64,000 nt of DNA from the NCBI GenBank assembly GCA_965197525.1, contig OZ240211.1:576001-640000 (forward strand), read 5' to 3'. This DNA is from Nitrosopumilus sp. (GTDB lineage: Archaea > Thermoproteota > Nitrososphaeria > Nitrososphaerales > Nitrosopumilaceae). Position 1 is the stretch's first letter. Each line of letters starts with the position of its first letter. The position numbers and the translations under genes were made by a program. The notes under the pieces are model-generated. The model had not been told where the DNA came from. It saw only the letters and a list, made by a program, of their open reading frames with translations, and ran no database searches. Of the stretch, positions 3,389-43,800 are shown piece after piece.

Positions 3389-3583
3389 ATGGTTCACGGC
3401 GATCATAACAGATCAAGAAATAATGGAGGATTTGCCCTCATCATACTAGGCGCATTGCTACTATTTTTGGCGCCAAATATCTACGGAGATATGCGTGAGC
3501 TAGGCACGATTGCGCTAATTGGAGGAATAATCATCGGAATCATAGGATTTTACTTGAAGTTCTTCAAATGGCGCAGAAAATAA
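3389..3583 (+). CDS. Small two-TM membrane protein
   Basis: 64 aa ORF with two hydrophobic helices, co-oriented directly after lysS. Confidence 0.7.
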   Translation: MVHGDHNRSRNNGGFALIILGALLLFLAPNIYGDMRELGTIALIGGIIIGIIGFYLKFFKWRRK

Positions 3584-35490: not shown

Positions 35491-36816
35491 TTATCCTAAG
35501 CCTAGCTTTCTTAGGGTGCCTTTCATTTGACGGCCTTTGGAAGATTTCATTAAATGTTTAGAGGCATTGTAATTTTTCACCAATTCTTTGACCTCTCCTT
35601 CAGGCCATCCGGAGCCGCGAGCAATCCTAGTATATCGTGATTTGTTTAACAGAGCAGGATTAGCTTTCTCTTCTTTTGTCATACTTTGAATGATATATCG
35701 CCATTTTGAAACTCTTCCTTCCATTTGACTGAGTTGGTCAGTCTTTACCATACCAGAGAGGCTAGGCATACTATCGACTAGTCCTTGCAGAGAGCCAACT
35801 TTGGTTACCTCTTCGAGCTGGTAAAAAAAATCATCCATGTTCATCTTGCCACTGGTAATTCTTTGCATTCTCACATCATCACCTTCTTCTTCCAAACGTT
35901 TAGCTAAATCCAGAACTGCTTGAATATCGCCCAGTCCAAGCAATCTGCCAACAAATCTAGTCGATGAGAACTTTTCTAAATCATCAATTCGCTCACCTGT
36001 TCCAATGTACATTATTTGAGCACCGGTAGCAGTTGATGCTGCAAGCGCACCTCCGCCTTTGGCAGAGCTGTCCAATTTTGTAACTATGACACCTCCTACA
36101 GGAATGGTTTTGTGGAATGCCTCTGCCTGATTAAGACACTGTTGCCCTATTGTCCCATCAATTACCAGTAATGCTAAATCAGGCTGTGCAATATGGTTTA
36201 TCTGTTTCATCTCGTCAAGCAGGGTGTGTTCTTCTTTGTGGCGACCTGCAGTATCAATTAAGATAATATCTGTTGGTTTACCTGCAAAATGCTTTAGTCC
36301 GTTTTTTACAATATCCGGAGAATCTTTATTGTTTTCTTCACCATACACCTCTACATGTGATTTGTCACACATGGTTTTGAGTTGAACCAAAGCCCCTGGT
36401 CTGTGGGTATCAGCACCAATAACGCCTACTTTGTATCCTTGTCTGGTTAAAAACCTAGCAAGTTTTGATGCAACAGTAGTCTTGCCACTGCCTTGAATTC
36501 CCAAGAGAACAATCTTGTTCTGTTTTCCTGGTTGAAAATCAAAGTCTGACTCTTTGCCCAGTAATTTTGATAGCTCATCGTGAAGAATCTTTACAATATG
36601 ATCCTTACGGGACAGTCCCGGTGGCGGAACTTCGTTTATTGCCCTATCCTCCAACCGTTCAGTGATTTTGAGGATAAGGTGTATGTTAACGTCAGCTGCA
36701 ATCAATGCTTTTTGAACATCGTTTGCAAGTTCCTTGATTAGATCTTTGTCCACCCCTGATGATTTTACAATCTTTTTGATTGCAGCACCAAGGCTGGTCT
36801 TTAGGTTATCAAGCAT
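35491..36816 (-). CDS. srp54: Signal recognition particle protein SRP54
   Basis: GIQGSGKTT, DTAGRH, TKLD, M-domain IARGSG. Confidence 0.97.
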   Translation of the reverse strand: MLDNLKTSLGAAIKKIVKSSGVDKDLIKELANDVQKALIAADVNIHLILKITERLEDRAINEVPPPGLSRKDHIVKILHDELSKLLGKESDFDFQPGKQNKIVLLGIQGSGKTTVASKLARFLTRQGYKVGVIGADTHRPGALVQLKTMCDKSHVEVYGEENNKDSPDIVKNGLKHFAGKPTDIILIDTAGRHKEEHTLLDEMKQINHIAQPDLALLVIDGTIGQQCLNQAEAFHKTIPVGGVIVTKLDSSAKGGGALAASTATGAQIMYIGTGERIDDLEKFSSTRFVGRLLGLGDIQAVLDLAKRLEEEGDDVRMQRITSGKMNMDDFFYQLEEVTKVGSLQGLVDSMPSLSGMVKTDQLSQMEGRVSKWRYIIQSMTKEEKANPALLNKSRYTRIARGSGWPEGEVKELVKNYNASKHLMKSSKGRQMKGTLRKLGLG

Positions 36817-37495
36817 GATAATTCAATTCCGCGTCCACTATTTCAAACCTTCCCCTATATCCGTCCCAGTTTTTTTGAGACTGTTTTATCTTTATTGAAT
36901 GTGTGAATAAAGGACAGTCAATTACAAACGTCTCTGCCTCACCTCCTTCAAAATTCAAGTTAAATCCAAATTTTGCAGATAGGCGTGATAGGGTTTGTAC
37001 ATCCTCTGCTGTAAGGATTCGTCCCAACCATGAATCATCCAATCCATCAGATGATACACTAGTCATCATAAAATCAAATCTTTGGACTAGTTGAGTCATA
37101 TATTCGAGTGGAGGCACGCCCCATAACGGTGATACGGCAGTTAGATTTAGTTTAGAGCATATGTCCCCAAATTTCTTTTTTTGAAATTGGCTCTTTATTC
37201 CACCATGAACCAGTCCTGAAATGTCAAACTGTTGTTTTGCATTCTGAATCAAATCTTCGAGGATGCAGATCTCTTTGTCAGTATCATCAGAGTCACACGT
37301 TGCCACTAGTTGAGGAATCCCCATAGACTGAGATTGTAGTTTTGTCCACTTGATATTTGGGTGGTGTAACAGATGGCTCTCACCAGAACTAGGGAACAGA
37401 CTTAGTAGACATGTAATGGTATGACCCTGATTTTGTGCTTGATATATTGCAGAGGTACTGTCCTTTCCACCTGAAAAGAGTGATGCTAGATTCAT
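36809..37495 (-). CDS. dph6: Diphthine--ammonia ligase
   Basis: SLFSGGKDS, FEGGEAET. Confidence 0.9.
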   Translation of the reverse strand: MNLASLFSGGKDSTSAIYQAQNQGHTITCLLSLFPSSGESHLLHHPNIKWTKLQSQSMGIPQLVATCDSDDTDKEICILEDLIQNAKQQFDISGLVHGGIKSQFQKKKFGDICSKLNLTAVSPLWGVPPLEYMTQLVQRFDFMMTSVSSDGLDDSWLGRILTAEDVQTLSRLSAKFGFNLNFEGGEAETFVIDCPLFTHSIKIKQSQKNWDGYRGRFEIVDAELNYHA

Positions 37496-37689
37496 GATGA
37501 TATGATCGTTATGAAAGAAATTATGATAATAATGTATGGTAATAATTGTTGGCAGGTTAAATGAATGTAAAAATATGATGCTTCATAACTCATAATCCTC
37601 ATCAACATTCAGATGGCCTAATGCCCATTAGCATATAGTAGCCATCAGCATTCAGATGGCTTTTCCGCTCATCATCAGCATCATCTCTA

Positions 37690-38100
37690 TTAGTTCTTTA
37701 TACGCATGATTTTAATTTTGTCCATAACGACCCAATATTCCACATTCTGCCCGTTATCCAATTTACCTTTGACCTCATCATCAATCAGACTAACATCAAT
37801 AGTCTCAAACGTTTCAGAGTCCATAATTTGAACCAGGTCACCGTTGATGGATATAATCTGGCCGACTTTTTTGTTAATCATGGGAACGTGAATCTGCATA
37901 CTGACAGGACCTACGTGAGGTCTCTTTTGACCATCAAAGATTCCCTCGGCCACAATCCGTGCTTTGGCTGCACCGTGTTTACCGGGTTTTGATGTATCGT
38001 ACTCTACAATTCGGCACGGTTCCCCACTTGGTTGATCAGAGTGAGGTAACAGAATATAGGAGCCAATCTTTAATGAACCAAGATCAGATGGTTTGCTCAT
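37690..38100 (-). CDS. eif5a: Translation factor eIF5A
   Basis: SKPGKHGAAKAR hypusine motif. Confidence 0.97.
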   Translation of the reverse strand: MSKPSDLGSLKIGSYILLPHSDQPSGEPCRIVEYDTSKPGKHGAAKARIVAEGIFDGQKRPHVGPVSMQIHVPMINKKVGQIISINGDLVQIMDSETFETIDVSLIDDEVKGKLDNGQNVEYWVVMDKIKIMRIKN

Positions 38101-38179
38101 AAAAAAACTGATTTTACTTGAATGTTTTAAAGGTTTACACGTGAATTTTGGGGATTATATACATGGGTATACTTGGTTC

Positions 38180-38202
38180 GGTTCTGTTAACTTTCGAGGG
38201 GT
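38180..38202 (+). repeat. Orphan IS6-type terminal repeat
   Basis: GGTTCTGTTAACTT is identical to the first 14 nt of the 7727 TIR; no complete partner found. Confidence 0.6.
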
Positions 38203-38215
38203 AATCTAACTTTGA

Positions 38216-38653
38216 TTATCTTAAATCCGCCTTGTAAATGTGATCTTTGAGATCGGTTGTGTTGGTATCGATCAAAGCGGATATTTCCTTATGTTCTTGT
38301 TGTGTTGGCTCTCTTTTATACCACTGTTGAAAATAAGACAATGCAGCACATTTAAGAAAACCTATACCTACACCATATTGAAAATCTCTATTGTTTTGAA
38401 TTAGTGGTTCGTTAGTTATTGGATCCTTGATATTTGTTACTGTAGTTGGAGGTTTGCTGGATATCAAATCTTTTTGAAGTTTTTGTGTAACTTCTTCTAT
38501 CAAGGCCTTGGTAAAATCTAGTTTTAACTCAGTCAACAGAGTATTTTTTCTTGTGTTGTTTAATATCTTCTTCGGTGTACATATGAAAACAGTTGCCAGC
38601 CCATTCCATGCATGCTTGAATCCATTCTGGTGTAGGTGGTTCTGCCATATCAA
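38216..38653 (-). CDS. Hypothetical cargo protein
   Basis: ORF directly inside the orphan IS6-type end. Confidence 0.5.
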   Translation of the reverse strand: MIWQNHLHQNGFKHAWNGLATVFICTPKKILNNTRKNTLLTELKLDFTKALIEEVTQKLQKDLISSKPPTTVTNIKDPITNEPLIQNNRDFQYGVGIGFLKCAALSYFQQWYKREPTQQEHKEISALIDTNTTDLKDHIYKADLR

Positions 38654-38798
38654 AAAACAATCATACCAAGTTAAAGGTATTATTTTATGATTTCATCAAG
38701 GCTTGCATTCTGAATTATGGTTTTCCATTTGTTGTCGCCTTTGATTCTAAAACAAATAATGTCATAATTGTTGTTGTAGTTACCTCGTGCGTTTCATA

Positions 38799-38993
38799 TT
38801 AGTCCACCGTAATTTTGTTGCCCTTGATTCTGAACGTTACCTTGTCAGGCTCGCCTAGCATATCCACTATCGGTTTTGGTACTATGCACATCGATCCTCT
38901 GGATCTGTCAATGAACAGGCTTACCGTAAACTCCGTCTCGTCCTTCTTCCATCTTGTCATAATATTCCTGAATGTTAGTGTTATATTAACCAT
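38799..38993 (-). CDS. AbrB-like small DNA-binding protein
   Basis: CIVPKPIVDMLGEPDKVTFRIKGNKITV; start probably MTRWKKD. Confidence 0.75.
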   Translation of the reverse strand: MVNITLTFRNIMTRWKKDETEFTVSLFIDRSRGSMCIVPKPIVDMLGEPDKVTFRIKGNKITVD

Positions 38994-39039
38994 ATGGTTA
39001 AAGTAATGTTAATATAACCCTAAGGATAATATTATTCAT

Positions 39040-39125
39040 GACAGGATTGCTTAGCAAGGTTAAAGCGACAGATTCAGAATCTGTGTCTCTCGCCGAGATC
39101 GTGGGTTCGAATCCCACTCCTGTCG
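39040..39125 (+). tRNA. Class II tRNA with CAG anticodon and Ser-like identity (G73)
   Basis: Acceptor GACAGGA/TCCTGTC; D-arm GCTT..GG..AAGC; anticodon stem ACAGA/TCTGT with loop TTCAGAA; long variable arm; T-arm GTGGG-TTCGAAT-CCCAC; discriminator G. Confidence 0.85.
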
Positions 39126-39174
39126 CTACTTTTGATTCTTTTTGTGTTATATTAATTTTTGAGGTGTCAGCGAT

Positions 39175-40176
39175 ATGAATGCAAGACAGACAAGAGGTCA
39201 GATCAGTATGAGATATATGAATAAAAACAAGAAAGACACACAAGCACCAAGTAAATCATTTAGAAAAGGCATCACATTGATGGAATTATTCAGGATGTTT
39301 CCTGATAATGATACTGCAGAGAAATGGTTTGAGTCTAGAATATGGAAAGATGGCAGAAGGTGCCCTACCTGTAATAACCCAGACACAAAAGAGGCAAAAC
39401 ATCCAAAGATGCCTTATCGGTGTTATGTTTGTCACAGTTATTTCAGTGTTAAAAAAGGGACTGTCATGGAACAGTCAAAAATATCATATCAGCATTGGGC
39501 TATAGCTACCTATCTTTTTGCCGTAAATCTAAAGGGTGTGTCATCTATGAAGATACATAGAGACCTAGGAATAACACAAAAATCAGCTTGGTTCTTGGTT
39601 CATCGTTTAAGAGAATCATGGAAAATGTTGGCAGGAGTTGACTCTATGACTGGTCCAGTTGAAATAGATGAGGTATACCTGGGAGGCAAAGAAAAAAATA
39701 AACACGCAGACAAAAAACAGTCCAAAGGTCAAGGTGGTAAAAACATGACTGCAGTAATCGGAATAAAAGACAGAGCAACTAACAAAATATCTGCTCAACC
39801 AGTACCAGAGACAACCAGAGCCAGACTAGAGAATTTTGTAGAATCCAAGACGACACAAACTGTTACAAAGTACACTGATGAGAATCCAGCTTATAGTGAA
39901 CTGTCAAATCACGAATCTGTGAGGCATTCTGTAGGTGAATATGTCAGAGGACAAGCCCATATCAACGGACTTGAATCATTCTGGTCAATGGTCAGACGTG
40001 GATATGACGGCATATACCATCACATTTCAGAAGATCATCTGCACCGATACATCAACGAGTTCGCAGGACGTCACAACGTCAGAAGCATGGACACAATAGA
40101 CATGATGAGTGAGGTAGCAGAGAACATGATAGGGCATAGATTAACCTACAAGGACTTGATAGGTCAGGGGATTTGA
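39175..40176 (+). CDS. IS1595-family transposase
   Basis: Zn ribbon CPTC..YRCYVC; GPVEIDEVYLGG, YTDENPAY, HINGLESFWS; element ends not identified. Confidence 0.92.
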   Translation: MNARQTRGQISMRYMNKNKKDTQAPSKSFRKGITLMELFRMFPDNDTAEKWFESRIWKDGRRCPTCNNPDTKEAKHPKMPYRCYVCHSYFSVKKGTVMEQSKISYQHWAIATYLFAVNLKGVSSMKIHRDLGITQKSAWFLVHRLRESWKMLAGVDSMTGPVEIDEVYLGGKEKNKHADKKQSKGQGGKNMTAVIGIKDRATNKISAQPVPETTRARLENFVESKTTQTVTKYTDENPAYSELSNHESVRHSVGEYVRGQAHINGLESFWSMVRRGYDGIYHHISEDHLHRYINEFAGRHNVRSMDTIDMMSEVAENMIGHRLTYKDLIGQGI

Positions 40177-40187
40177 TCCATGTTCTA

Positions 40188-40439
40188 TTATTTTGATTGT
40201 TGATTTACATATTCATAAATAGAGTCAAAAAATTCTTCCTTCAACCCAATATCTACTAATTGATCTTCCACTAACTCGGAATTAACACTATCTTTTTTGT
40301 CAACAAACACTTCCATTGAAGAAATGATTGAATGATGGAGATAATAAACAAATTCACTATCGGCTTCGGTAATACGCAGAAATCCTAATATAGAAAAAAC
40401 CGATAGCATTTTTTTAGGTTCGTAACTACTTTGTTTCAA
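40188..40439 (-). CDS. Hypothetical protein
   Basis: 83 aa ORF convergent with the transposase. Confidence 0.45.
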   Translation of the reverse strand: MKQSSYEPKKMLSVFSILGFLRITEADSEFVYYLHHSIISSMEVFVDKKDSVNSELVEDQLVDIGLKEEFFDSIYEYVNQQSK

Positions 40440-40463
40440 GATCTTCTCCTATGGTAGAAGACC

Positions 40464-40631
40464 TTAATGTGTCAATATTTCTGGGTGTCTGTGTATGTAC
40501 ATCGTCACAGCCTCATGTATTTTTTTCATTGCCTCGTCCTCTGTTTTAGCAAAAACACGAACAGGTTTCATAGCAGGGCAAAACGCCATAAAACCCCCTT
40601 CCACTGACTTCATTTGAAACGTGTATTGCAT
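40464..40631 (-). CDS. HicB-like (UPF0150) protein (missed by ORF track)
   Basis: MQYTFQMKSVEGGFMAFCPAMKPVRVFAKTEDEAMKKIHEAVTMYIHRHPEILTH*: EGGF.A.CP......T.DEA...I.EA...Y pattern. Confidence 0.65.
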   Translation of the reverse strand: MQYTFQMKSVEGGFMAFCPAMKPVRVFAKTEDEAMKKIHEAVTMYIHRHPEILTH

Positions 40632-40697
40632 TATGAACACATACCATAATTACCTAATATACACTGCAAGGCGTTGTTTAAAAAGATTGTTAACAGG

Positions 40698-42028
40698 GGT
40701 TCTGTTGGGTTAACGGGTGTTGACTGCTGAGGATCATGTCAGATTCCACAACCATCAACAACACATTGACTACTCGACTTTGACATATCGACTATTCGGA
40801 TTACCGGTCTGCAGGGTTCCGCCATCGCCGGTTCAAAAACACCGGACTGCGCTTCATGTATGCCATCTCTACTATCTCTAAACCTAGGAGACAGTTTGCG
40901 TGATATGTTCATGGCAGCGATAATATCCCTGTCCATAAACAAACCGCAATTATTACACGATGATTTACGATGTTGTTGCATGTCCTCTTGGAGTCTCTTT
41001 CCGCATTGCGGACACTGCGTGCTCGTGTTTTTTGGGTCTACTGTTTTTACAGGTAGCCCGACCCATTGGGCTTTGTATTCTATTTGTCTTTGTAGTTCAA
41101 AGAATTGCCATCCGTTCAATCTACGTCTGTATTTGTTGCCTTGACCGTTTCCTTTTCCGTACAGTTTTCTAATTCCCTTTAGATTTTCTAGAACAATGAC
41201 AGCCTTTTTCTTGACTGCATTGTCTACTATGTTTTTTGAGATTCTATGTATGTACTGTTTTGTCCTGTTTGACATTCTTCTCTGTTTTTCTTTGTAGAAT
41301 TGACCTTTCTTTCTTTTGTTGTTTCTACGGAAACTGGATCTGGCATGTATTGTGTTCTCTTTGATTGAGAGTAACTTGTTGGTTTTGTAGAATGTTACCT
41401 CTTCTTCATTTCCGCATGTGACGTTTCTAAGGTTTCTGTCTACTCCCACTGTCTTGGTGCACTCTATCTCCTGTACTTTTTTTGAAATACAAAGACTGAT
41501 GTTGAGAGCAGTCAATGAAAACGAGCGCACTGTCACGGTGGGATCAGACAGTATTTTTTGAGTATGTTCGTTGAGCAGGATGTTAATTGGATTTCTTGGC
41601 TTGTATGGAATTGTGAGTAAGGCGCCGTTGTGTTTTATACGGTAACAATTAGTGATAAACGGATTTTTGATAATTGGATCTTTTACTTTGAGGCCACGTT
41701 TGACTGACTGATCTCTGTTTGCCAGGATGCCCGCAGCTCGTGATATTGCATTGAGTTTGTATGAAGATAGGATGTCATAGTGACGTAATTCGTGATAGCA
41801 TAGCATAGACAACCGTTTCATGTTGTGGGTATCTTCCTTTAGCCCATCTTGATACAACGGTTAACCATGTCTGTGAACGTGATCATCATATCCATTAGGT
41901 CAGAGTTTGGTGTATGTTTTTGTGCTATTGACTTTATTGCTCTCAACAAGTATTGTACGGTTTAAGGTTATCTATATTTAGTGTTATGGGTATAATTTCT
42001 GATCAACACCCGTTAACCCAACAGAACC
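40698..42028 (-). mobile_element. Non-autonomous IS6-type TIR element carrying tnpB (copy 2, 1331 bp)
   Basis: Perfect 26-bp TIR GGTTCTGTTGGGTTAACGGGTGTTGA at 40698-40723 and 42003-42028; near-identical to copy 3; no TSD. Confidence 0.9.
40739..41949 (-). pseudogene. tnpB: tnpB with a 1-bp deletion near the 5' end
   Basis: TTTAGCCC-ATCTTG here vs TTTAGCCCTATCTTG in copy 3 (deletion at ~41845); explains 1331 vs 1332 bp; RuvC motifs intact. Confidence 0.88.
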
Positions 42029-42340
42029 GGCGACTGCAATGATTGCAGTCTCTTGTCTGTCAAATGAGACCAAAAATAGGCTAAAAAAATGATTGTTCAG
42101 ATTGCATATAACTCATGTTTACTCATTTGCCATCATGGCAGGAATACTTGCAGATTCTCTAACAAGATTATAGTATCGTGAGATAACCGACTATAGTAAG
42201 TTACTAATCATTTTCTACTATGTGTTTTATAGATAAAAATCAACAAAATATGTGAACGATTATAAAAAAAAATGAGTAACGCCGTAATCTAGAACAAAAA
42301 AAACAAACTGTATAAGAAGCATTAAAACACTTTAGCAATG

Positions 42341-42652
42341 TTAAAACTTTTCAGGTCTTACTATACCAACGTCGCTAACATGCAACATTATTGCATAATT
42401 AGCAAATAACGTTCTTGAGATCTCCTCTACAATATCAGATAGTTTATCTTCACGTAATACAACCTCCACTTTGACATTTTTTTCATTTTTAAATCCTTGA
42501 CCGCGTAATCCACGCGCACCGTTTCCATCTACTTCATAAGTGGTATAACCAGTTATGTCATGTTTCTTTAAAATTTGAAGAACGTTTTTTTGAGTAAGAA
42601 TCTCACACGTGACAGTTAGTAGTTTTACAGGATATAGTTTCATATGAACCAC
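42341..42652 (-). CDS. sbtB: P-II-like regulator (SbtB type)
   Basis: KLLTVTCE, GYTTYEVDG.GARG, KVEVV; overlaps the 3' end of the sbtA-like gene. Confidence 0.75.
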   Translation of the reverse strand: MVHMKLYPVKLLTVTCEILTQKNVLQILKKHDITGYTTYEVDGNGARGLRGQGFKNEKNVKVEVVLREDKLSDIVEEISRTLFANYAIMLHVSDVGIVRPEKF

Positions 42653-43800
42653 TCTGCAATGTAATTCAATAAATCTATCGATCCTTCTGCATCATGAAGA
42701 AGTGATGACACGCTGAACATTACAGGCAATAGAACTATTATGTTGTATGGAAAAGTAATTCCCAAAGCAGACGTGATGTAAAGACTGGGCTTTGCCTGTG
42801 GAATGGCATGACGAAGAACAGCAGGTGCTGCAATAAATGAGGCACTAGCAAGTAGTAGTCCGAACATAACTGCACCACCCAAACTCAGGCCCATGGCAGT
42901 TGCAACTATAACACCAATTATTCCATTAAAAGTAGGCATTAGAACTGCAAATGCAACAAGAAAGACTCCAACTTTTTTTATATCATCAAGTCTCTGTCCT
43001 GCAATTATCCCCATCTCGATCATAAAGATGACTATGGCACCAGTAAACATCTCATCGAATACGATCTTGATGGAATCAAAACCTTCATTGCCAATAATAT
43101 AACCAATAACAATACTTCCCAACAGTATCACTATTGCTTTACCGGTGACGGATTCGCGTAACACTTGAGATAGATTTGTTTTAGTCTCGGCTAGACCCAA
43201 CTGGATGTCTACTGTGACATCATCATCAACATCAACATCAACATCATCACCAACAACATCACCAACAACATCACCAACAACATCAACGTCAGGATTATCA
43301 ACAAATGATTGCCTCTTGGCATTGATCTGTTTTGATACTGCCATATTTGTCAAAAATATTGCCAAGATAAAAGCAACAGGTTCTAAAACAGCTAGGATTG
43401 CAGCCAAGTATCCCTCTGATGAGACGCCTTGATTCTTAAGAAATGACAAGCCAACTGAGAATGTTACGGCCCCTACTGCGCCATACGTGGATGCTAGAGC
43501 ATATGAATCAAATATGTTGAATTTTCCCAGCCTTCGCAAGATTTGATAATGATTCAACGTAAATAGTAAAGACAGACCGATGGCTACCAACATTGGAATC
43601 AACATATTCTCAAATCCGGTATTTCGCATCTCTATGCCACCATGCAGTCCAATTGCTGCAAGAAGGTAGATTGGTAAAAATTCAGAGACAGCCTCTGGAA
43701 TTTTTAGATCAGATTTTATTCTAGCAGCGATGATTCCAAACAAGAAGAACAGTATAATCGGAGTTAGAAGATTTGATTGTATGAGTTGTAATATGTCCAT
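42640..43800 (-). CDS. sbtA: Sodium-dependent bicarbonate transporter family permease (SbtA/DUF897)
   Basis: KSDLKIP, IYLLAAIGLHGG, YGAVGAVTF, ASASFIAAPA, ITFPYNII. Confidence 0.88.
   Translation of the reverse strand: MDILQLIQSNLLTPIILFFLFGIIAARIKSDLKIPEAVSEFLPIYLLAAIGLHGGIEMRNTGFENMLIPMLVAIGLSLLFTLNHYQILRRLGKFNIFDSYALASTYGAVGAVTFSVGLSFLKNQGVSSEGYLAAILAVLEPVAFILAIFLTNMAVSKQINAKRQSFVDNPDVDVVGDVVGDVVGDDVDVDVDDDVTVDIQLGLAETKTNLSQVLRESVTGKAIVILLGSIVIGYIIGNEGFDSIKIVFDEMFTGAIVIFMIEMGIIAGQRLDDIKKVGVFLVAFAVLMPTFNGIIGVIVATAMGLSLGGAVMFGLLLASASFIAAPAVLRHAIPQAKPSLYITSALGITFPYNIIVLLPVMFSVSSLLHDAEGSIDLLNYIAEWFI

Follow-up and report, generated by a model that had tools for sequence, protein, structure and literature searches.

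Structure of the tRNA gene and its flanking regions

The window, i.e. the whole 64,000-nt stretch of DNA that was analysed, carries a class-II tRNA gene of 86 nt, hereafter tRNA(CAG), with the anticodon CAG, the discriminator G73 and no encoded CCA at 39040..39125 (+ strand), as identified by ARAGORN, Rfam and reading of the cloverleaf from the sequence. ARAGORN called a tRNA-Leu(CAG) at 39040-39126 (+ strand), and RF00005 of Rfam matched 39040-39125 with 58 bits (threshold 29, E 6e-10). The complete long-armed cloverleaf with CAG loop and G73 described in the original prediction was thereby confirmed, with 25 of 25 stem pairs intact. The gene was further predicted to lie between an AbrB gene and an IS1595 transposase. 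Downstream this is clear, as an IS1595-family transposase gene is located at 39175..40176 (+ strand, 333 aa; Pfam DDE_Tnp_IS1595, 114.6 bits with a cut-off of 27, 5e-33), whereas the upstream small ORF (38799..38993, - strand) is only weakly AbrB/MazE/VapB-like.

By sequence reading, the acceptor stem GACAGGA/TCCTGTC is followed by U8 and U9, a 4-bp D stem (GCUU/AAGC) with the D loop AGCAAGGUUA, G26, and the anticodon stem ACAGA/UCUGU, which includes G30:C40. The anticodon loop reads U-U-CAG-A-A with U33 and A37 present, the 16-nt variable region is G-UCUC-UCGCC-GAGA-UC with a stem of 4-5 bp, and the T arm is GUGGG-UUCGAAU-CCCAC. The canonical 7-bp acceptor and 5-bp T stems, together with U8, A14, G18G19, U33 and the T loop, are kept, and the tRNA strand folds with a z value of -3.9 in comparison to shuffled sequences.

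A TATA-like box (TTAATATAA, 39009..39017, + strand) is situated at -31 to -23 from the tRNA 5′-end, in agreement with the predicted upstream box, and according to the module alignment its position is kept in the homologous loci L094, L098, L096 and L097. Repeat search and module alignment also identified an inverted repeat at 38975..39023 with 16-nt arms (94% complementary), in which a pair of divergent TATA boxes flanks the palindrome TTAACCATATGGTTAA, and which makes a plausible candidate operator. On the 3′-side, the T-rich tail noted earlier was recovered as a trailer (39126..39174, + strand) that overlaps a conserved transposase promoter (TATATTAA at 39148-39155). The same promoter recurs before transposase genes at genome positions 1395005, 2003522 and 922582, and also 3′ of homologous tRNAs. 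Within 1.5 kb on either side of tRNA(CAG), no complement of at least 9 nt to its variable arm was found, and RNAduplex comparison with the flanks gave long, loop-ridden and untrustworthy duplexes and no credible antisense partner.

Mobile context

The promoter and first codons of the IS1595 transposase gene recur in further transposase genes of the genome. The cargo module starts on its left side with an IS6-type element end (GGTTCTGTTAACTT, 38180..38193, + strand), of which a 12-mer occurs seven times in forward and five times in reverse orientation in the genome and also bounds a paralogous module at 701 kb. The right end of the module (GTTAACAG, 40689..40696, + strand) is cut off by the next element, a TnpB element with perfect 26-nt terminal inverted repeats (GGTTCTGTTGGGTTAACGGGTGTTGA; 40698..42028, - strand; repeat search, Pfam Cas12f1-like_TNB), which shortens the module. 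This TnpB element is present in the genome in five copies at 96-99% identity and in about 40 more diverged copies or fragments, and since its termini resemble the IS6-type end GGTTCTGTTAAC, it may be mobilised by the IS6-type transposase. Local alignment returned no terminal inverted repeats directly flanking the unit of AbrB-like gene, tRNA and transposase.

The paralogous unit is of IS6 type and 3.1 kb long (genome 699962-703081; locus L093, 803-3922), with the ends GGTTCTGTTAAC and GTTAACAGAACC. Its cargo consists of a SWIM/DDE_IS240 transposase, a tRNA(GAA), an AbrB-like gene, an N6/N4 DNA methylase and an HNH nuclease, and its tRNA(GAA) (genome c701160-701261) is a class-II, intron-bearing tRNA with A73. 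Both in this paralogue and in contig OZ244732.1, the gene downstream encodes a transposase of the IS6 family, with a DDE_Tnp_IS240 and a SWIM domain.

A search of 14 congeners gave no match to the region 38128-42338, save for pieces of the TnpB element and two short matches to the small gene. The region is enclosed by conserved flanks, with diphthamide synthase and aIF5A on one side (36800-38127) and P-II/SbtA on the other (42339-43800). In the four congeners that were checked with both flanks on one contig, these are 32-45 kb apart, which indicates a host deletion or rearrangement exactly at the mobile-element junction. The lack of a match in the congeners searched and the distance between the flanks there bear out the label of a mobile region given to this tRNA in the original prediction.

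To the left of the AbrB-like gene, the - strand of the window at 38702-38745 contains a 40-nt fragment (..KGDNKWKTIIQNA), which is repeated at genome positions 572985, 584883 and 923666 and looks like the remnant of a transposase C-terminus.

Leucine and serine identity

The host genome, a single contig of 2.21 Mb with 39.6% G+C of which the window forms bases 576001-640000, was screened with ARAGORN and has a complete canonical Leu set (GAG, CAG, UAG and two intron-bearing genes, all A73) and four canonical Ser tRNAs (all G73). The check proposed earlier, for a separate canonical tRNA-Leu(CAG), was positive (genome c1178533-1178618, A73), and the window tRNA is therefore a supernumerary copy. 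CUN-reading tRNAs usually carry G37, and A37 had on this basis been held against Leu identity. That argument fails, as the canonical tRNA-Leu(CAG) of the genus also has A37 (host and the relatives L145, L147 and L153), so that A37 discriminates nothing in this genus.

Leu and Ser covariance models were built from host and congener tRNAs, with the CAG anticodon included in the Leu model. Canonical Leu tRNAs, which were part of the training, scored 105-114 bits with the Leu model and 57-65 bits with the Ser model, the two intron-bearing Leu tRNAs outside training 73-80 and 39-48 bits, and canonical Ser tRNAs 48-64 and 90-107 bits, respectively. The window tRNA received 57.4 bits with the Leu and 61.9 bits with the Ser model, i.e. 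it is at cross-score level on both models and fits neither host Leu nor host Ser tRNAs. The Leu model does not win despite the CAG anticodon in it, and the clear Leu preference that the original prediction had named as evidence against its view was not seen.

Besides A73, all host Leu tRNAs have in common that the 3′-half of their variable arm contains an invariant A-G-G-A-G-U-U-C. In tRNA(CAG) the variable loop is UCGCC, as opposed to UCAG or UUAG in host Leu tRNAs, and the invariant A-G is absent. Otherwise the variable arm (GUCUCUC..GAG.UC) resembles host Leu tRNAs, and its stem CUC/GAG, the 3′-tail UC and the T arm (GUGGG-UUCRAAU-CCCAC) match them, while the 4-bp D stem and G73 match host Ser tRNAs and the D-loop length falls between the two. 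The Ser-like body that had been predicted is thus right only in part, as regards G73, G30:C40 and the 4-bp D stem; the body as a whole is not Ser-like, given the Leu-like variable and T arms and scores that are as distant from those of host Ser tRNAs as from those of host Leu tRNAs.

In Haloferax volcanii, Leu identity depends on A73 plus A47c, G47d and U47h, while for SerRS, archaeal and bacterial-type alike, strong elements are G73 and G30:C40, and a change from A73 to G73 turns Leu into Ser identity in several contexts (PMC9976931). Judged by such rules, which stem from Haloferax, Methanosarcina and human enzymes and may not be those of Thaumarchaeota, tRNA(CAG) lacks both A73 and the loop A-G of archaeal tRNA-Leu (the loop rule being that of H. 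volcanii), and has G73, the long variable arm and G30:C40 of archaeal tRNA-Ser in combination with a non-Ser anticodon. From its sequence, the body looks like that of a former tRNA-Leu, with the known Leu marks lost and Ser marks carried. In view of these changes, and because a single SerRS gene is present in the host genome, we reasonably infer that the tRNA would be serylated; the Leu-like variable and T arms and the Leu anticodon mean that it might also be leucylated.

A spare tRNA-Leu that boosts CUG decoding, charged by a thaumarchaeal LeuRS tolerant of G73 and the altered variable loop, is distinctly unlikely. Such a gene would explain the Leu anticodon, also the GAG of the close sister copies, which is again Leu, as well as the Leu-like variable stem, tail and T arm, the intermediate D loop, and a Leu-model score only 4.5 bits under that of the Ser model. 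However, A73 and the loop A-G, present throughout the canonical Leu tRNAs of host and relatives, are both missing here, the Leu-model score of 57 lies in the cross-score range of Ser tRNAs (48-64), and a canonical Leu(CAG) is already in the genome. Moreover, the sister class-II bodies carry GAA, GAU and UAU, with which charging by LeuRS would still give missense tRNAs.

Copies of the tRNA in other genomes

A pattern scan of public genomes yielded further copies of the tRNA, with near-identical ones in records labelled Nitrosopumilus sp., Nitrosopumilaceae and Cenarchaeum sp. Contig OZ244732.1 contains two CAG copies with G73 (L096, L097) and OZ243974.1 one CAG copy with G73 and G37 (L103), and GAG copies with G73 were found in CAZDQM010000032.1 (L094) and in Cenarchaeum VXON01000107.1 (L098). 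Two further copies have decayed and show broken stems, one in CAXXLJ010000002.1 with an unreadable anticodon (L099, about 3448-3530), and one with CAG (L127, 1501-1586), where the adjoining AbrB-like gene is intact. A lineage covariance model run against 150 family genomes gave L127 and also identified AbrB-linked relatives with GAU (L137) and UAU (L140).

The proposed search for homologues in other elements was in this way rewarded with copies on other Nitrosopumilaceae transposons, and the tRNA/AbrB-like loci number 12, with the anticodons CAG (5), GAG (2), GAA (3), GAU (1) and UAU (1). A35 is present in all 12, and only positions 34 and 36 change between lineages. The discriminator is G73 in every intact AbrB-linked copy except that of the host 701-kb unit (A73), and the CAG anticodon is kept in four intact copies, window tRNA included.

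The CAG copies of OZ244732.1 (two) and OZ243974.1 have 93-97% identity to the window tRNA and 97-99% to each other, whereas the promoter region, small ORF and downstream gene of the same pairs are mostly only 48-72% identical, and the flanks of these copies have 50-63% identity to those of the window tRNA. When six sequences were aligned, both partners were exchanged in four stem pairs with pairing preserved, and 98.7% of the cells are paired; the MAFFT alignment of both sub-lineages was kept out of the pair counts, because the intron-bearing copies were misaligned there. A tRNA identity far above that of the flanks, in combination with two-sided pair changes, points to selection on the whole RNA, anticodon included. 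New findings of this analysis are the AbrB-linked tRNA sub-family and its occurrence in several genera, the scores with the host models, and the contrast in conservation between tRNA and flanks.

These data bear on the view that tRNA(CAG) is a decaying pseudo-tRNA, i.e. a functionless relic of a duplicated tRNA-Leu between insertion sequences. Its position among IS remnants and the clearly degraded state of L099 and L127 would suit a relic, but the unbroken set of stem pairs, the 93-99% identity among copies of different genomes against about 50-60% in the flanks, the two-sided changes that preserve pairs and the conserved promoter make it very improbable.

The lineage-specific tRNA pattern had no match in viral sequences. 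A looser T-arm pattern was rejected as a probe for viral origin, being too generic and matching mostly bacterial class-I tRNAs, and the metagenome pattern matches were discarded as further copies, since 18 of 18 were chance matches outside tRNAs.

The AbrB/MazE-like partner gene

The longest ORF upstream of the tRNA has 64 codons by translation, with a likely start at M12 (38960) that would leave 53 aa; its homologues begin with M-T/P-R/K-W-K-K-D. No Pfam or PDB sequence match was obtained for the protein, either alone or as a 17-member profile. Its AF2 model (pLDDT 71) gave the best fold matches to VapB, MazE, Abh and pSSV C56, i.e. AbrB-type half-barrels, all weak (Foldseek E about 3; VIA Z 2.0-3.0, rmsd about 2.5 Å over about 43 residues). 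Among the 11 chains with VIA Z of at least 2, ten were MazE, VapB, Abh or C56, with Z of only 2.0-3.0. The homodimer model scored 0.59 against 0.01 for the best control, which may stem from likeness to solved AbrB/MazE dimers. Among proteins solved as pairs, 20 of 30 attained this mark, and among those solved as single chains, one of 23. The dimer runs had a contact agreement of at least 98% and a pLDDT of at least 76.

In the 12 loci, tRNA and small gene form divergent head-to-head pairs, in which 75-104 nt separate the two 5′-ends. In other genomes, the homologues closest to the small protein (66-68% identity) adjoin the same divergent tRNA, and at 20 loci with more distant homologues, ARAGORN and Rfam detected no adjoining tRNA. 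In the paralogous elements a methylase-HNH operon begins with the AbrB-like gene, which may therefore regulate that operon instead of the tRNA.

The arrangement would also suit a role outside translation, in which the RNA would act as a decoy or substitute for tRNA-cleaving toxins (VapC, anticodon nucleases), as a transposon regulator or processing signal, or as a cofactor of the AbrB-like protein. The tight and exclusive linkage to a gene with a VapB/MazE-like antitoxin fold, with no toxin gene adjoining, is consistent with this, as is the position of tRNA(CAG) exactly between two promoters, and bacterial allo-tRNA(UAU) species, which likewise have toxin-antitoxin and transposon genes linked to them, were inactive in translation in E. 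coli (PMC5389517). We nevertheless consider a non-translational RNA unlikely, given that all translation features are kept (7/5 stems, U33, U8-A14, G18G19, T loop, G15-C48), that the four intact copies retain their anticodon with lineage changes confined to 34 and 36, and that the window module has no nuclease gene.

Proposed function

The interpretation that we favour, tentatively and at somewhat less than an even likelihood, is that tRNA(CAG) is functional, a supernumerary class-II tRNA that travels as cargo of an IS6-type transposon, harmful but held in check and paired with the AbrB/MazE-like gene. This reading is preferred because a missense-type tRNA that constantly adjoins an antitoxin-fold regulator on transposons, and now and then decays, recalls the bacterial allo-tRNAs. 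It would descend from tRNA-Leu by loss of A73 and of the variable-loop A-G and by gain of G73, and the single host SerRS would most likely charge it, which would lead to serine at CUG, i.e. Leu-to-Ser missense. CUG accounts for 12.8 per 1000 codons in the host genome, and as the codon is this common, an active CUG-to-Ser tRNA would damage most proteins and be harmful at high level. The AbrB-like protein may bind the palindromic divergent promoter and so hold the tRNA level low, and the pair could in this manner form a restrained "poison tRNA" module that serves the transposon in addiction, stress response or defence.

Useful recoding is unlikely, since the element's own genes neither avoid CUG nor are enriched in it, and its CUG codons appear to stand at ordinary Leu/Phe positions. 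CUG-to-Ser recoding of these genes was rejected for the same reason: the transposase has three CUG codons, and a paralogue shows L or F at the aligned positions. Further points against the poison-tRNA module are that a repressor alone gives no classical post-segregational killing, and that the copies L099 and L127 are decaying.

A bolder version of the favoured reading, unlikely as it stands, is a new toxin-antitoxin-like or abortive-defence module, in which a serylated class-II tRNA would be the poison and a dimeric AbrB/MazE-like protein the repressor at the shared palindromic promoter, spread by IS6-type elements through marine and sponge-associated ammonia-oxidising archaea. The serylated tRNAs would then read codons of hydrophobic residues, i.e. 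CUG, and CUY, UUY and AUH in the sister copies.

Comparison with known systems

The closest analogues are the bacterial allo-tRNAs (Mukai et al. 2017), which have a long variable arm and a mismatch between anticodon and identity, with UAU as the commonest group, and some of which insert Ser at non-Ser codons in E. coli; their acceptor/T stems are 8/4 or 9/3, and their genes adjoin toxin-antitoxin and transposon-related genes (PMC5389517). Similarly, tRNA(CAG) adjoins an AbrB/MazE-like gene and IS1595 or IS6 transposases. Unlike the allo-tRNAs, it is archaeal and of 7/5 shape, seems to go back to a tRNA-Leu, and is accompanied on IS6-type transposons by a constant AbrB-like partner. In human tRNA-Leu, the engineered A73G exchange gave a Ser acceptor in vitro through G73 alone (Breitschopf and Gross 1994, as cited in PMC9976931). 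The window tRNA likewise combines a Leu-type class-II body with G73, but would be a natural and conserved case of such a Ser acceptor.

The tRNA shares the CAG anticodon, G73, the long variable arm and the reading of CUG with the CTG-clade yeast tRNA-Ser(CAG). The yeast tRNA has a Ser-derived body, G33 and m1G37, and is the main CUG decoder. In contrast, tRNA(CAG) is a mobile tRNA with U33 and A37 that exists alongside the canonical tRNA-Leu(CAG). A reassignment throughout the genome is not implied.

To our knowledge, the published cases of deliberate or weaponised mistranslation are so far bacterial allo-tRNAs and a small number of Streptomyces tRNAs, and no archaeal description of such tRNAs was found in the literature searched, the coverage of which was incomplete. 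If charged with Ser, tRNA(CAG) would amount to an archaeal missense tRNA that is natural, conserved and mobile and has the ordinary 7/5 shape, and mistranslation of the deliberate or weaponised kind would then extend to archaeal transposons. Annotation pipelines would label a 7/5 tRNA of this kind plain "tRNA-Leu", and genes of this type inflate the tRNA-Leu, Phe and Ile counts in annotations of ammonia-oxidiser genomes. With this tRNA, class-II identity rules (A73/G73 and variable-loop bases) can moreover be put to a clean natural test in Thaumarchaeota, for which we know of no such rules that have been measured.

Other long-armed tRNAs

The genome-wide ARAGORN search revealed odd long-armed non-Ser tRNAs with G73 in the host, which in addition to the window CAG gene were UAA (three), UCU (one) and AUC (one). 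They are located at 370064, 828334, 2002247, 1960237 and 1904518, all in a transposon context. Four of them, at c370064, 828334, 2002247 and c1960237 (L088, L089, L090 and L092; UAA three times and AUC once), have on the same strand, at -48 to -52, a stretch of 9-13 nt that is the exact complement of their own variable arm. This stretch differs in each of the four and is absent at 1904518. In comparison to these four, the window tRNA has no upstream complementary stretch but has the AbrB-like gene.

Odd long-armed tRNAs with UAA, GAA, GAU or CGG were also observed in other Nitrosopumilaceae genera (L128, L129, L154-L158, L131, L133 and L146). None of these had an AbrB-like neighbour, and all carried G73 except L131 (A73). 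Finally, ARAGORN called a host tRNA at genome c918756-918828 with the four-base anticodon tccg, read as Gly or Arg.
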